Source: a virus. Taken from it: a DNA stretch of 64,000 bases. Under the pieces are notes generated by a model, which saw nothing but the letters and a program-made list of their open reading frames with translations, ran no database searches and was not told the origin of the DNA. Positions 1 through 4,272 of the stretch are shown here, in pieces. The stretch's first letter is position 1, and the number at the start of each line of letters is the position of its first letter. Location: positions 1-64,000 of the IMG/VR virus record IMGVR_UViG_3300017917_002068; one strand, 5' to 3'. The position numbers were made by a program, and so were the translations under genes.

Positions 1-864
1 CTGTAGGCGGTTCGCCGCTTACGAAGAATAACTGTGGTGACACAGCCAACGGATGTATGCCTACATAAGTCCGCCAGCAATGGTTCATTTAAGCAAGCCG
101 GCTCACTAGGGCGACCTAGCGATCACTGATAAGACCGGTGGTTGTAACAGCAAAGCTGATGTATGGGAAAGAACGCAGTTCGACGTGCCGCAAGGAACAC
201 GGGACTGTGAAAAGTAACAGGTGGTGCTGACTTCCATACGAAACCAATCAGTTAGTTGGTATGAGAAAGGGTAGTGTTTGGTTCCGAGGGGTCGCTCCTA
301 AGGGGTCAAGCGCAATGTTAGTGGTTAGTGGTTCTGTTGTGAAACAGAGACATTGATCGCGAAACATCACTGAGTAGCTCGCGAGGCAAAAGGTACGTGG
401 TGTGTTGTATTCTGTATCTAACAAGATATAGAGCAACTGAGGCAGCACATCGCAGTAGGTTGATATAGGCTAATGGTAGGCCAATTCCCTGTTAAGGAAT
501 AGACTGTTGGTTCGACTCCAACTATCTTACAAAAATGCAAAGACTGCCTCGGTCATGTGTGAAAAGCATCTAACACTCAAGGCACAAGCTAATTGAGTTT
601 AGTGAAGCTCGCAAGGTAACACTAATTTGTGAATGGGGGTTCGTAACTGTTTAGCGACAGTGAATAGCTCGCAAGGCTAACGGAATGGATTTCACAGAGT
701 AGCACATGATGACAAGACTACTGCCTGTCTTTAAAAACGGCGATGCTGGTAACAGACTAGGATACCGCAAGGGTCTTAGTGGATGTCTAGAGAAGCTATA
801 CTCGCAAGGTGTAGTATAATGCTAGAGGTGTTACTGGCTTAGGGTGTAATCTCAACCTTAGGCA
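1..864 (+). ncRNA. Large highly structured ncRNA, GOLLD-like (5' end probably upstream of the window)
   Basis: About 860 nt with no credible ORF. Many GNRA-capped hairpins (recurrent CGCAAGG), long-range helices such as GAGGCAG 439-445/CTGCCTC 544-550, and a 3' hairpin. It abuts a phage tRNA array and contains a tRNA-like insert; both are reported features of GOLLD RNA. Confidence 0.7.
459..530 (+). ncRNA. tRNA-Asn(GTT)-like module embedded in the large ncRNA
   Basis: D arm GGCT/GGCC, anticodon arm ATTCC-CTGTTAA-GGAAT, T arm GTTGG-TTCGACT-CCAAC. Only 4 acceptor pairs (GATA/TATC) and no CCA. Confidence 0.75.
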
Positions 865-953
865 CTATTATAAAACACATTGTAGCGGGTTCGTAAGTAT
901 GAGTCGCATTCCAAAGAGTGCCCTTGAACTGAATATAGTGTGTTTCATAATAG
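865..953 (+). ncRNA. Small structured element closed by a 20-bp imperfect stem
   Basis: CTATTATAAAACACATTGTA pairs with TATAGTGTGTTTCATAATAG; inner hairpin GCATTC-CAAA-GAGTGC. Confidence 0.55.
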
Positions 954-961
954 AAAATTTG

Positions 962-1036
962 GCATCGATAGCTCAGCGGTAGAGCAACGCCCTTACAAGG
1001 CGAAGGTCCTAGGTTCGATCCCTTGTCGATGCACCA
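962..1036 (+). tRNA. tRNA-Val(TAC)
   Basis: Cloverleaf; acceptor GCATCGA/TCGATGC; anticodon loop CTTACAA; encoded CCA. Confidence 0.93.
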
Positions 1037-1042
1037 CACAGC

Positions 1043-1134
1043 ACCCCTGTAGTTTAATGGTAAAACAGCGGATTTATATCCCGTGTGCAACAGATAATTG
1101 GCCAATGTGGGTTCGACTCCCGCCGGGGGTACCA
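1043..1134 (+). tRNA. tRNA with TAT (Ile) anticodon and a 22-nt variable region
   Basis: Acceptor ACCCCTG/CGGGGGT; loop TTTATAT; variable region 1085-1106; T arm GTGGG-TTCGACT-CCCGC; ACCA end. Confidence 0.8.
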
Positions 1135-1141
1135 ATTAAAT

Positions 1142-1231
1142 GGAAGGTTGGCAGAGTCCGGTTTATTGCACCTGTCTTGAAAACAGACGATCCGAAAGGG
1201 TCCGTGAGTTCGAATCTCACACCTTCCACCA
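1142..1231 (+). tRNA. tRNA-Ser(TGA)
   Basis: Class II cloverleaf; loop CTTGAAA; long variable arm; CCA. Confidence 0.93.
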
Positions 1232-1237
1232 AATTAC

Positions 1238-1330
1238 GGAGAGTTGGCTGAGCGGCTGAAGGCAGCGGTTTGCTAAACCGTCGATCGTTTTATAAGCGGT
1301 CCGAGGGTTCGAATCCCTCACTCTCCACCA
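1238..1330 (+). tRNA. tRNA-Ser(GCT)
   Basis: Class II cloverleaf; loop TTGCTAA; CCA. Confidence 0.93.
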
Positions 1331-1361
1331 AGTACTAGAACTATATACAATACTATAAAGG

Positions 1362-1547
1362 ATGAATATGCTTAGACCTACAGCAAATTATAAAATGAGC
1401 AAGCCAACAAAAACTGGTTTAGCTCTACACAAGTTTAAAGATGCTCACTCTCGTGGGGCATGGAAACGTGCTATGATTCAAGCAGAGCTTAGTGCTGCAA
1501 TACAACCTAAACGTGAAAAATCTCGCAGAGAACCTGCAGGAGAGTAA
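1362..1547 (+). CDS. Small basic hypothetical protein (start may be the internal ATG at 1396)
   Basis: ORF track; fills the gap between tRNA genes; abuts the next ORF. Confidence 0.55.
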   Translation: MNMLRPTANYKMSKPTKTGLALHKFKDAHSRGAWKRAMIQAELSAAIQPKREKSRREPAGE

Positions 1548-1548
1548 T

Positions 1549-1734
1549 ATGGGAGACGGTGGCAAGGGTTCTAGACCGAGACCATTTAGTGTCAGCCAAG
1601 AAGAATTTGATAATAGATGGAATGTTATTTTTAATAAGAAGAAAAAAACAGACACAGAAAAGTTCGACGATTCTGTAATGAAGAATGAATATTATGATCA
1701 GGATATCGATCCCGAAAACCCTGATAAAGATTAA
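1549..1734 (+). CDS. Hypothetical protein (MGDGGKGSRPRP...)
   Basis: ATG at 1549 preceded by AGGAG; in frame with the 1492..1734 ORF. Confidence 0.65.
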   Translation: MGDGGKGSRPRPFSVSQEEFDNRWNVIFNKKKKTDTEKFDDSVMKNEYYDQDIDPENPDKD

Positions 1735-1735
1735 T

Positions 1736-1811
1736 GGGGGTATAGCTCAGATGGGAGAGCAGTAGCTTTGCAAGCTAAAGGTCGTCAGTTCGATCCTGAC
1801 TATCTCCACCA
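1736..1811 (+). tRNA. tRNA-Ala(TGC)
   Basis: G3:U70 pair; loop TTTGCAA; CCA. Confidence 0.93.
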
Positions 1812-1829
1812 AATATATAGAGGAAAAAT

Positions 1830-1997
1830 ATGTCAAAAACAAGTATGCTAACTAAAACAGGTAAGACTAGACTAGGTCCTCTGAGCCTAGCACAGTTAAA
1901 AGATCTTCTAGAAAAAACATCTAGAGCCAAAGATAAAGGCAAGATCATGAATCGCATCCGCGAACTAGAATCTCGAGTAAGTAAAACAGCTATTTGA
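1830..1997 (+). CDS. 55-aa hypothetical protein (MSKTSMLTKTGKTRLGPL...), not in the ORF track
   Basis: GAGG RBS; fills the gap between tRNA-Ala and tRNA-Thr exactly. Confidence 0.6.
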   Translation: MSKTSMLTKTGKTRLGPLSLAQLKDLLEKTSRAKDKGKIMNRIRELESRVSKTAI

Positions 1998-2006
1998 AAA
2001 TTTTAA

Positions 2007-2080
2007 GCCGCTTTAGTTAAATGGTATAACAGTTGCCTTGTAAGCATCAATCGTTGGTTCGATTCCATCAAGCGGCACCA
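2007..2080 (+). tRNA. tRNA-Thr(TGT)
   Basis: Acceptor GCCGCTT/AAGCGGC; loop CTTGTAA; CCA. Confidence 0.9.
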
Positions 2081-2087
2081 GATCAAT

Positions 2088-2162
2088 TCCAGTGTAGCAC
2101 AGCGGTAGTGCAGGTGACTGTTAATCACTTGGTCGTTGGTTCGATCCCAGCCACTGGAGCCA
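2088..2162 (+). tRNA. tRNA-Asn(GTT)
   Basis: Acceptor TCCAGTG/CACTGGA; loop CTGTTAA; GCCA end. Confidence 0.93.
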
Positions 2163-2187
2163 ATTTTGCTAGTTTCTTAAAACTAGC

Positions 2188-2431
2188 CGGAGAAGTAAAG
2201 GGTAGATGAGGATAGACACCGTGTGGCTTCATGCCGCATGACTTAATTCTGGCAAACAGTCTTGAAAACTGTTCGTACTTGTATGACCCAGTCTAAACTA
2301 TTCGACCTTGTGATTTGACAACTGGAAATACACAAGTCTCTGTGCCTTGTGCCTTGTGACTTGTTTAGAGAAACTTTACAGTATCTCGATTTGCATTTTG
2401 TCCGGTCTATTACTTGACCTTTTACTATCCG
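2188..2431 (+). ncRNA. Unassigned structured RNA of about 245 nt
   Basis: Terminal helix 2188-2203/2417-2431; ATAGAC/GTCTAT; hairpins CGTGTGGC-TTCAT-GCCGCATG and AACAGT-CTTGAAA-ACTGTT; no ORF. Confidence 0.55.
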
Positions 2432-2507
2432 TCATTATTTTGGTAAGATAGACGTTGTGTCTGTCTTGTTTTATTGTTATAATTAATCATTGAAAAAAGA
2501 GATACAA

Positions 2508-3080
2508 ATGAATATCACACTTCGCAAAGCAAACGCACTTCAAAACAGCATCAACGATACTATTAAAAGTATCAAGTTTGATACTGTGGTTAAAGTAAAT
2601 GAATTCCAAGATCCAGAAGCAGTTATCAAGACTGCTGAAGTTGAGTTCGCTCGCAACATGCAAAGACGCGACAGTCTTTATGCAGTTCTTTACGAAATTC
2701 GTAAATTAGTCGGCAGAGGCAATGATGCCTCTGGTATTAGCCAAAGACTAGCGGATGTTGCGCATCTAGAAAAACAAATCCAGTTTTTTGGCGACCTTGC
2801 CTCTAAGGAAGTTCGAGAGGATGGAAAAGTCATCGCTGGCAAATTGGATAAGATCCGTAATGAAAAAGGTGAGAGTCGTAGAACTATCTACGGTTACAAT
2901 GACGAAGTATCTACTTCTATCCTAGACAAAGAGGAAGTAGAAGGCTTTAAAAAATTAACAGTAGCCTCTAAGAAAAACAAACAGAAACTCCAAGATGAAA
3001 TTCTTGAGTTGAATGTTAGAACTGAAATCGAACTCAGCGAAAAAGCTGTAGCGATTTTAACATCTGAAGGCTTACTGTAA
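2508..3080 (+). CDS. Hypothetical helical/coiled-coil protein inside the tRNA island
   Basis: 190-aa ORF from ATG 2508; TGnTATAAT just upstream. Confidence 0.8.
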   Translation: MNITLRKANALQNSINDTIKSIKFDTVVKVNEFQDPEAVIKTAEVEFARNMQRRDSLYAVLYEIRKLVGRGNDASGISQRLADVAHLEKQIQFFGDLASKEVREDGKVIAGKLDKIRNEKGESRRTIYGYNDEVSTSILDKEEVEGFKKLTVASKKNKQKLQDEILELNVRTEIELSEKAVAILTSEGLL

Positions 3081-3082
3081 CA

Positions 3083-3278
3083 GACCCCGGTTACACTTTT
3101 CCGGAAGAAAGTGCGCCATTACCAAGCGATAGAAGGTACGGTGCGTAGGATCTACCGCAAGGCCCTCTTTAGGGGCGACTTGAGAAATCTTAGGTACGAA
3201 CTGTAACGGCACCAAAAGCAAAATACAGCGGACAGGGTAACAACTCAGTCTAGGGCGGGACGGGAACCGTGGCTAGAC
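3083..3278 (+). ncRNA. Structured RNA of about 195 nt with a 5' pseudoknot (manA-motif-like candidate)
   Basis: CCGG stem whose loop CACTTT pairs with downstream AAAGTG; GCCCTC-TTTA-GGGGC; 3' GTCTAG...CTAGAC hairpin. Size and tRNA-adjacent phage context fit the manA motif; the family name is unverified. Confidence 0.5.
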
Positions 3279-3366
3279 ACTTTATCGAAGTGCATTACAA
3301 AACATCGGCCAGTTTAAGGTGGACCTGGGTGCTAGCAAGAAAACCTTTAGTGTGCTTCAATAAAGT
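3279..3366 (+). ncRNA. Small structured element closed by a 19-bp imperfect stem (second copy of the 865-953 architecture)
   Basis: ACTTTATCGAAGTGCATTA pairs with TAGTGTGCTTCAATAAAGT. Confidence 0.55.
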
Positions 3367-3375
3367 AAGAACAAT

Positions 3376-3449
3376 CGCGGAATAGAGAAAAGGTATCTCG
3401 AGAGTCTCATAAGCTCTAGTTCTTGGTTCGATTCCAGGTTCCGCAACCA
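3376..3449 (+). tRNA. tRNA-Met(CAT), initiator-like
   Basis: C1xA72 mismatch; A11:U24; loop CTCATAA; CCA. Lacks the three G:C anticodon-stem pairs. Confidence 0.85.
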
Positions 3450-3454
3450 AACAT

Positions 3455-3530
3455 GCGGGAGTAGCTCAGTTGGTAGAGCACTTGCCTTCCAAGCAAGATG
3501 TCGCGAGTTCGAGACTCGTCTCCCGCTCCA
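3455..3530 (+). tRNA. tRNA-Gly(TCC)
   Basis: Cloverleaf; loop CTTCCAA; TCCA end. Confidence 0.95.
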
Positions 3531-3535
3531 AATAT

Positions 3536-3614
3536 CCGGGTGTAGCTTAGTCTGGCTTAAAGCGCCTGCTTTGGGAGCAGGAGATCGTGAGTTCGAATCC
3601 CACTTCCCGGACCA
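3536..3614 (+). tRNA. tRNA-Pro(TGG)
   Basis: Loop TTTGGGA; CCGGG/CCCGG acceptor; CCA. Confidence 0.9.
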
Positions 3615-3623
3615 AAAAAATTT

Positions 3624-3698
3624 ACCCCCGTCGTTCAATGGAGAGGACAGGAGTCTTCTAAACTCTAAATGGAGGTTCGATTCCTTCCGGGGGTGCCA
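3624..3698 (+). tRNA. tRNA-Arg(TCT)
   Basis: Loop CTTCTAA; ACCCCCG/CGGGGGT acceptor; CCA. Confidence 0.92.
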
Positions 3699-3705
3699 GA
3701 ATTAA

Positions 3706-3780
3706 CTCGCTATAGTTCAATGGACAGAACGAGTTCCTCCTAAGAACTAGATCCAGGTTCGATTCCTGGTGGCGAGGCCA
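3706..3780 (+). tRNA. tRNA-Arg(CCT)
   Basis: Loop CTCCTAA; CTCGCTA/TGGCGAG acceptor; CCA. Confidence 0.92.
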
Positions 3781-3783
3781 AGT

Positions 3784-4023
3784 TATTGATGGTGATGAAA
3801 GATCCGATCAACGACCGAAAGGCGATACCGAGCGGGTGGAACTGCAGAGTTGGTGCATCGTAGATACATCGTTGGCTGCAATATGATCCAAGGCTTTTTA
3901 CAGGGTGACTGGATTGCGTGGTAACGGATTCCATGTTGGGCTGGACCATAGAAGCAGGCGCTGTAATGCCTGGGCGGCCAGGAGCTTCGAGCTTAAACCA
4001 AAACTTCATTATTACTGTCAATA
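3784..4023 (+). ncRNA. Unassigned structured RNA of about 240 nt between two tRNAs
   Basis: About 15-bp terminal helix 3784-3798/4009-4023; internal CAACGA/TCGTTG, CC-GAAA-GG, GAAGC/GCTTC, CCTGG-GCGG-CCAGG; GC-rich and non-coding. Confidence 0.6.
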
Positions 4024-4026
4024 CTA

Positions 4027-4100
4027 GCCCAGGTAGCCGAATTGGTATAGGCACTACGTTGAGGTCGTAGGTTTTGTGAGTTCGAATCTCACCCTGGGTA
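4027..4100 (+). tRNA. tRNA-Leu(GAG) lacking the long variable arm; CCA not encoded
   Basis: Acceptor GCCCAGG/CCTGGGT; CTACG-TTGAGGT-CGTAG; 5-nt variable loop GTTTT; T arm GTGAG-TTCGAAT-CTCAC. Confidence 0.85.
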
Positions 4101-4113
4101 CAAAGGAGACAAT

Positions 4114-4272
4114 ATGAAACTTTGGGAAGCAACTATTAGAGATCCTGGTCCGGGCACTGAAGAACGCAAGGTTCGAATCGGTGCCGACTCAGCAGAAGAA
4201 GCTCGCAAGCTTCTGCAACAACTCTACGGCCCTAGATCTGTTCCTTATCTACCTAAACAAATTCCTCAATAA
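4114..4272 (+). CDS. 52-aa hypothetical protein (MKLWEATIRD...), not in the ORF track
   Basis: Strong RBS AAAGGAG; resembles the 58338..58523 product. Confidence 0.7.
   Translation: MKLWEATIRDPGPGTEERKVRIGADSAEEARKLLQQLYGPRSVPYLPKQIPQ

Follow-up and report, generated by a model that had tools for sequence, protein, structure and literature searches.

A tRNA-shaped domain without an amino-acid-accepting end in the linker of a phage GOLLD RNA

The stretch analysed here, the window, comprises the first 64 kb (64,000 nucleotides) of the 128-kb IMG/VR virus record IMGVR_UViG_3300017917_002068, whose CheckV completeness is 37%, and it opens with a GOLLD RNA, a family known since 2009, recognised since 2025 as forming RNA-only cages, and without known function. 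The linker of this RNA carries a module shaped like a transfer RNA (tRNA), and comparison with related phage GOLLDs establishes the module's anatomy, the selection on its shape and the loss of all features of the acceptor end. The lost part is exactly what RNase P, the CCA-adding enzyme and the aminoacyl-tRNA synthetase need, while the elbow and the anticodon arm are kept. As judged from these comparisons, positions 459-530 are most likely not a tRNA gene but a tRNA-shaped domain of the GOLLD RNA. We propose, with a probability of roughly 0.6, that selection maintains this domain as a tRNA mimic which cannot be charged, remains tethered within the linker and is presented to a putative tRNA-recognising partner.

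An original prediction, made from the window's letters alone, had described a GOLLD RNA over about 1-864 with a tRNA-Asn-like cloverleaf in its variable linker. The Rfam scan found the expected family, with RF02032 (GOLLD) matching at 397-858 with 197.6 bits (gathering score 150, E 3.2e-54) over model positions 1-416 of 416. The match begins at 397 rather than at 1 because RF02032 models the conserved 3' domain only; the predicted extent is therefore not that of the Rfam match, although the 5' regions of related GOLLDs show homology to 1-396. In a blastn search with 1-1000, window positions 1 to about 881 aligned with related viral loci at 74-82% identity, and conservation among the relatives extends a further 22 bases or so beyond window position 1, which is base 1 of the record. 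Therefore, the GOLLD unit measures about 0.9 kb and its 5' tip is clipped by the end of the contig. GOLLDs are two-domain RNAs of about 800-900 bases, in which a linker joins a variable 5' domain to the conserved 3' domain. At gathering score the window holds this one GOLLD and 14 tRNA matches, and no other families. The cloverleaf was recovered by two programs: ARAGORN calls a tRNA-Asn(gtt) at 460-530, one of 14 window tRNAs, and the Rfam tRNA model matches 462-526 with 55.6 bits (cut-off 29, E 2.9e-9), covering only model positions 4-67 of 71, so that the acceptor ends are absent from the match. The features of the GOLLD RNA, of the module and of the ordinary tRNA used for comparison are as follows.

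1-396, +: probable GOLLD 5' (variable) domain, about 22 bases of its 5' end missing (blastn homology to 5' parts of related GOLLDs)
397-858, +: GOLLD conserved 3' domain (RF02032 match)
397-455, +: first hairpin of the Rfam GOLLD model, whose 3'-strand internal loop carries the 5' strand of the linker-closing helix (cmscan alignment, model 1-62)
439-445, +: 5' strand GAGGCAG of the linker-closing helix, pseudoknotted relative to the first hairpin (perfect complement of 544-550)
455-461, +: conserved 5' connector GUAGGUU, its last three bases being the unpaired tRNA positions 1-3 (found in most module-bearing loci of the first scan)
462-465, +: 5' strand of the acceptor stub, tRNA positions 4-7, pairing with 523-526 (sequence, ARAGORN, covariation)
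466-467, +: U8 and A9 (sequence)
468-482, +: D arm, GGCU / loop AAUGGUA / GGCC, stems 468-471/479-482 (sequence, ARAGORN, covariation)
484-500, +: anticodon arm with loop CUGUUAA and anticodon GUU at 491-493, stems 484-488/496-500 (sequence, ARAGORN, Rfam, covariation)
501-505, +: variable loop AGACU, of class-I length (sequence)
506-522, +: T arm, GUUGG / loop UUCGACU / CCAAC, stems 506-510/518-522 (sequence, ARAGORN, Rfam, covariation)
523-526, +: 3' strand of the acceptor stub, tRNA positions 66-69 (sequence, covariation)
527-543, +: A-rich 3' connector UUACAAAAAUGCAAAGA, without CCA and with C at 530 (sequence)
544-550, +: 3' strand CUGCCUC of the linker-closing helix (perfect 7 bp with 439-445, covariation)
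2088-2162, +: ordinary tRNA-Asn(GTT) of the same phage (ARAGORN; Rfam 65.1 bits over model 1-71)

The module keeps intact D, anticodon and T arms, as had been predicted, and its acceptor region likewise turned out as described. Only four of seven pairs form between 459-465 and 523-529, namely those of 462-465 with 523-526 (GAUA/UAUC), and the outer three positions oppose G.A, U.U and U.U. The discriminator place, position 530, is C and 530-537 read CAAAAAUG; CCA is absent because C530 is followed by AAAAAUG. The enclosing helix proposed earlier at 439-445/544-550 is a perfect 7 bp. In the Rfam alignment, 439-445 sits in a 9-base internal loop of the model's first hairpin and its partner comes after the variable region, so that the helix is a pseudoknot that closes the linker. 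The normal tRNA-Asn(GTT) to which the prediction had also pointed lies about 1.6 kb downstream of the module, at 2088-2162, with all seven pairs of its acceptor stem (UCCAGUG/CACUGGA) followed by GCCA, that is, G73 and CCA. It belongs to a set of 13 free tRNAs called by ARAGORN at 962-4101, downstream of the GOLLD in a phage setting, all of which match the Rfam tRNA model over its full length (1-71).

Related GOLLDs were sampled in two scans. The first, unbiased for the linker, took viral contigs with the GOLLD 3'-end motif and gave 85 loci in 68 non-redundant records, of which 56 had a GOLLD match at E <=0.001 and 48 were above the cut-off. The linker was readable in 50 GOLLD-positive loci; a strict cloverleaf parser accepted 24, of which 22 were kept after inspection by eye (L012 and L016 were rejected), and two degenerate modules (L044, L048) and a circularly permuted one (L018) were added by eye. 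The second scan required two connector motifs separated by 62-92 bases, with no requirement for a cloverleaf, and gave at least 119 stretches. With both scans pooled, 62 parser matches less five false parses (L160, L185, L118, L114 and L116) left at least 57 distinct cloverleaf modules at the same linker place, and all counts out of 57 refer to this set, among the matches listed. The comparison set drew on these loci and comprised 791 different free tRNAs of class I, with 176 long (class-II) calls and 84 parse failures excluded; the contrast between modules and free tRNAs is conservative because this set retains a few linker modules with other flanks (e.g. L047 and L053). At least 120 loci from genome contigs also carried the 15-base 3' motif, but none of those listed was similar to window 1-881 by blastn at E 1e-5, and coincidental occurrence of so short a motif is the likeliest explanation.

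Loss of the amino-acid-accepting end is systematic in this set. The outer acceptor pairs 1-72, 2-71 and 3-70 can form in 24, 27 and 23 of the 57 modules, where shuffles average 29.3, 30.4 and 28.4, while in free tRNAs they are present in 89-97% per position. The inner pairs 4-69 to 7-66 that make up the stub form in 53-54 of 57 modules, a level reached in 0 of 2000 shuffles and comparable figures for free tRNAs being 91-95% per position. All seven acceptor pairs are found in 616 of 791 free tRNAs versus 4 of 57 modules. CCA is encoded by 684 of the 791 free tRNAs, and by 12 of the 13 free tRNAs in the window, versus none of the 57 modules. The discriminator base, where G73 is an identity element for asparaginyl-tRNA synthetase, is G in 33/33 free tRNA-Asn(GTT) versus 1/26 modules with a GTT anticodon. 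The prediction of a mimic or displayed domain was thus matched by 57 modules that lose the accepting end and keep the L-shape core and the anticodon loop.

The remaining structure is under selection. We aligned 55 modules with their flanks using MAFFT (L177 and L075 were excluded as their loci are cut) and counted pairing over five helices: the one that closes the linker, the 4-bp stub and the stems of the three arms (D, anticodon, T). Among 1357 cells, 98.8% are paired versus 74.9% in shuffles (0/500 shuffles reach this value), and shifting the partner columns by 1-3 lowers pairing to 30-40%. Changes on both sides affect 20 of 25 pairs and 306 cells, compared with 84.7 cells in shuffles, and every helix is supported: the closing helix has 99.7% of its cells paired in 55 sequences with 4/7 pairs changing on both sides, all four stub pairs and all five anticodon-stem pairs covary, all four D-stem pairs change on both sides with 99.5% of cells paired, and 97.1% of T-stem cells are paired. 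The bases of the tertiary core are also retained, with UA at positions 8-9 in 54/57 modules, GG in the D loop in 54/57, a T loop beginning UUC in 57/57 and a variable loop of five bases in 50/57.

The anticodon loop carries a bias of its own. In the 51 modules with seven-base loops, the consensus C32-U33-N34-U35-U36-A37-A38 (NUU type) is defined by C32 in 45, U33 in 50, U35 in 44, U36 in 48, A37 in 48 and A38 in 46, and position 34 is free (G 26, U 18, C 6, A 1); the other 6 of 57 modules have loops of six or eight bases. No such bias at positions 35-36 is seen in the free tRNAs of the same loci. The variation at position 34 bears on a queuine role through tRNA-guanine transglycosylase (TGT), which had been raised in the original prediction: the U33-G34-U35 loop of the window module fits it, but G34 occurs in only 26 of the 51 loops. 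A search of the 128-kb record for the TGT family (PF01702) gave no match, which says little for a fragment at 37% completeness. Separately, modules with a TAG anticodon (L017, L047 and L134, labelled 'Leu' by ARAGORN) have variable loops of 4-5 bases, unlike bacterial tRNA-Leu, and some other modules read CTA or TTA at the anticodon place.

Modules resemble one another more than they resemble free tRNAs, with a median best identity of 0.91 to another module versus 0.74 to any free tRNA, and on this basis the module belongs to a dedicated lineage. The window module is 60% identical to the window's own tRNA-Asn over 53 core positions and so is not a recent copy of it. On a tree of 48 GOLLD backbones, built with the module excluded, the anticodon label changes at least 21 times, and module identity correlates weakly with backbone identity (Spearman 0.29). 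Identical modules occur on backbones that are 66-82% identical, backbones 89% identical carry modules only 53-66% identical, and a GTT module (L107) and a TTT module (L021) differ at 1 of 53 module positions. These patterns indicate that modules are exchanged between GOLLD backbones like cassettes, so the earlier description of the domain as grafted was right about a tRNA-shaped insert in the linker and understated its status as part of a dedicated, exchanged lineage. Among the partial loci fetched, a free tRNA-Asn(GTT) is present in 13/26 loci with GTT modules versus 11/25 loci with other modules, and no association was found between the anticodon of a module and a free tRNA of the same anticodon (Fisher p 0.25-1.0). 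In these loci GTT modules thus show no sign of substituting for free tRNA-Asn, which is about as frequent beside other modules.

That GOLLD linkers can hold tRNAs and a 'pseudo-tRNA' is already known from the literature. RNA-only homo-oligomeric cages with an interior linker have been described for env-38 and Streptococcus agalactiae GOLLD (PMC12286853, PMC12990946), the published cage comprising 10 to 14 chains. According to Kretsch et al. 2025 (PMC12286853), the linker lies inside a 14-chain cage, tRNAs are 'sometimes present' in it, and it is disordered in the solved env-38 cage. A 2026 review (PMC12990946), which cites Morgado et al. 2020, refers to an "inhibited storage" idea and to a Mycolicibacterium GOLLD whose J13/15 holds a tRNA-Phe, and Behra et al. 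2019 (PMC6582537) name the mycobacterial insert a pseudo-tRNA, with no separate RNA by Northern blot. Full-text search found no publication joining 'GOLLD' with 'acceptor stem', Weinberg 2009 and Morgado 2020 lying outside the searched texts and possibly giving more detail, and publications pairing 'GOLLD' with 'tRNA-like' concerned other subjects, as far as their titles and abstract openings tell. The window RNA resembles the GOLLDs with published linker tRNAs (J13/15) in belonging to the same family by curated score and in adjoining a phage tRNA island, and its module occupies the same place as the published inserts, the linker between the first hairpin of the 3' domain and the rest. The accounts cited here take the published inserts for tRNAs, whether as cargo joined covalently to the RNA or as precursors in store; unlike them, the modules described here form their own lineage with a 4-bp stub, no CCA, a mismatched discriminator, an NUU loop and cassette exchange. 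In the literature searched we came across neither a conserved design lacking the acceptor end, nor a loop bias towards NUU, nor an exchange of modules as cassettes.

The domain retains the seven-base anticodon loop and the elbow, in which the D and T arms keep the bases of their tertiary contacts, and its 4-bp acceptor stub runs directly into the connectors, GUAGGUU on the 5' side and the A-rich tail on the 3' side, with the covarying helix 439-445/544-550 closing the entire linker. In the mechanism that we envisage, the domain would stay covalently tethered, without excision, and by analogy with the published cages it would face the interior. The cage may thereby confront a putative tRNA-recognising factor with many copies, one per chain, of the elbow and of an anticodon arm of Asn/Lys type (NUU), and the module would never be charged. 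Candidate partners include an anticodon-directed host nuclease, a tRNA-modifying enzyme and the ribosome. A more specific version, possible but doubtful, is that in large aquatic phages the GOLLD cage acts as a multivalent decoy, absorbing or misleading a host factor that attacks or modifies the anticodon loop of tRNA-Asn or tRNA-Lys; the target would be the anticodon nuclease of a defence system or, for G34 forms such as that of the window, TGT, and an arms race could then have left its trace in the fast turnover of cassettes and of the base at position 34. If the linker domain is a dedicated, selected tRNA mimic, the function of GOLLD becomes experimentally approachable, and the questions raised would be which factor binds the acceptor-less NUU arm and elbow, whether the module is excised and whether its removal alters phage growth on hosts with tRNA-targeting defences.

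Several observations weigh against reading the module as a selected mimic. About half of the sampled GOLLDs have no module (26 of 50 readable first-scan loci lacked a cloverleaf under strict parsing), so that the module is not required for the cage. The pattern used in the second scan sets the flanks and the linker length by construction, and the 57 modules are mutually related, which means that cell counts are not independent events. Four of the 57 modules are able to form all seven acceptor pairs when G.U is counted. Thermodynamically, 437-552 does not fold significantly better than shuffled sequences (z -1.72, with 16/200 shuffles folding as well) and the minimum-energy fold omits the 4-bp stub; structural support therefore comes from covariation and not from folding energy. 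The linker of one subclade, represented by L013, holds a near-complete tRNA-Lys(CTT) with 6/7 acceptor pairs and UCCA, and real, possibly releasable tRNAs may coexist with mimics in the GOLLD family. Finally, the metatranscriptome contigs that bridge the module junctions, described below, are of low depth (3.5-4.4). As a separate observation, the L013 linker sequence is identical in L049, L072 and L076.

The best surviving alternative, which we nevertheless consider unlikely, is that the module is a purely architectural L-shaped spacer or folding aid in the linker and is read by no tRNA-binding factor. Such a role would agree with the variability of the linker, with the 26 of 50 readable loci that do without a cloverleaf, with the linker disorder reported for env-38 in PMC12286853 and with the interchangeability of the cassettes between backbones. 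However, a spacer needs no tRNA-type loop, yet C32, U33, U35, U36, A37 and A38 are each found in 44-50 of 51 loops, a preference that at positions 35-36 is not shared by the free tRNAs of the same loci, and the tertiary-contact bases of the elbow are kept too.

We regard as improbable a second alternative, in which the module is a true tRNA-Asn precursor stored in GOLLD, to be released by RNase P and 3' nucleases, completed by the host CCA-adding enzyme and used to decode AAY. The intact cloverleaf core and canonical CUGUUAA loop would be expected of such a precursor, the literature on linker tRNAs and storage (PMC12286853, PMC12990946) provides a precedent, and the L013-type tRNA-Lys(CTT) comes close to one. 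It is opposed by the G.A, U.U and U.U oppositions at the end of the window module's acceptor and by outer pairs at chance level in the 57 modules, by the absence of CCA from all of them as against 12 of 13 free window tRNAs, and by a discriminator C where all 33 free tRNA-Asn have G. Loops of six or eight bases in 6/57 modules, and the use of what is nearly the same body with G34 or U34 (L107 and L021), also fit decoding poorly, and the same island already encodes a complete tRNA-Asn, with modules and free tRNAs not complementary in their occurrence. The 128-kb record yielded no PF01743 (PolyA_pol/CCA-adding enzyme) match, and a look at the tRNA-repair context found neither RtcB (PF01139) nor RNA_ligase (PF09414) in it; as the record is a fragment, this is no proof of absence. 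That the module is a pseudogene in decay, left to drift without function after a tRNA gene had entered the variable linker, is highly improbable, since the degenerate acceptor end, the odd loops of some relatives (six or eight bases, or G33) and the apparent T-arm-like remnant seen by eye in Roseobacter phage DSS3P8 are outweighed by covariation in all four remaining helices (97-99.5% of cells paired), by conserved tertiary bases and a design shared by 57 distinct sequences, and by identical modules persisting on backbones only 66-82% identical.

As a proposed non-chargeable mimic, the GOLLD module can be compared with other RNAs that imitate tRNA. YrlA and the bacterial Y RNAs (RF02553) contain a tRNA-like module that mimics the D/T elbow within a larger, often phage- or prophage-linked RNA; YrlA mimics the acceptor, T and D part, and the Rsr-binding Y-RNA stem replaces the anticodon arm. 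The GOLLD module likewise imitates the elbow within a larger non-coding RNA and most likely does not serve decoding, but it retains an anticodon arm and has lost its acceptor end. In the tRNA-like domain of transfer-messenger RNA (tmRNA) and in the 3' tRNA-like structures of plant viruses, the acceptor/T half is mimicked and becomes aminoacylated. The GOLLD module is the complementary case, with elbow and anticodon arm kept and the chargeable end absent. The mascRNA of MALAT1 and its kin possess a complete acceptor stem; RNase P and RNase Z release them, and they receive CCA. The module shares with mascRNA the embedding of a cloverleaf in a long non-coding RNA and differs from it in lacking the outer acceptor pairs and, on weak evidence, in that contigs from RNA libraries cross its junctions.

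These contigs come from four metatranscriptome runs in which relatives of the window GOLLD are present, as contigs only, which cannot reveal RNA ends. One contig (X18 record 29; 262 bases aligned to 369-630 with 7 differences) spans the whole module and reaches more than 31 bases beyond it at either end, and three others (X15 record 7, X16 records 13 and 14) each bridge one module junction. The uncut form thus occurs in RNA libraries, where DNA carry-over is possible and a cut form could coexist. Library contig depth is high over 1-800 and near zero over neighbouring coding stretches, neither contig depth nor uncovered parts being usable as evidence, and joints from 461/462 to 527-531 seen in the libraries probably come from relatives with other cassettes and not from excision.

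Cultured phages carry such RNAs as well. Phaeobacter phage MD18 and Roseobacter phage DSS3P8 have unannotated GOLLDs that score 169.6 and 150.7 bits, above the Rfam cut-off. The annotated 'tRNA-Arg' of MD18 (positions 1560-1633 of locus L324; 22670-22743 of the phage record) lies inside the GOLLD linker and is a module with loop CGUCUAA, G33, two acceptor mismatches and no CCA. It illustrates that standard tools call such modules tRNA genes and so inflate phage tRNA counts. In the linker of DSS3P8 (L323) no tRNA was called and no cloverleaf was seen by eye, and this linker appears to keep only the T-arm-like remnant mentioned above. Directly downstream of the GOLLD in both phages lies a permuted tmRNA gene of alpha-proteobacterial type (Rfam 107-119 bits), with tag peptides given by ARAGORN. 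A blastn search of window 1-4200 against cultured phages detected nothing beyond similarity at the level of tRNAs, at about 73% identity and over no more than 9% of the query.

Two further linker and locus arrangements were noted among the relatives. The linker of L018 (= L079), which lies about 425-285 bases upstream of the 3' motif of the GOLLD, holds a tRNA-like fold in circular permutation, in the order T arm, 7-bp acceptor hairpin with ACCA in its loop, D arm and anticodon-like arm, and its minimum-energy fold draws the permuted hairpins at -37.5 kcal/mol. Records G062 (L077) and G064 (L080) each contain, at a distance of about 1 kb from the main match to the GOLLD model, a second and weaker one (69-87 bits), which suggests tandem GOLLD-like RNAs.

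Hairpin cassettes of about 90 bases with long AT-rich closing stems flank the GOLLD, at 865-953 in the window and upstream of the GOLLD in relatives, and in several relatives such a cassette contains the T-arm-like CAGGTTCAACTCCTG. Between tRNA-Asn and tRNA-Met, window 2150-3400 has no Rfam match at E 0.1; this stretch includes an open reading frame of 196 amino acids at 2490-3080 with a TTG start. Two of the free window tRNAs are themselves unusual. The tRNA-Leu(GAG) at 4027-4101 is the sole one without an encoded CCA, with ACAA following its acceptor stem, and its 75 bases by ARAGORN are short for a bacterial class-II tRNA-Leu. The tRNA-Ile(TAT) at 1043-1134 has about 20 extra bases inserted in its variable region, for a total length of 92, and still matches the full Rfam tRNA model with 54.8 bits.

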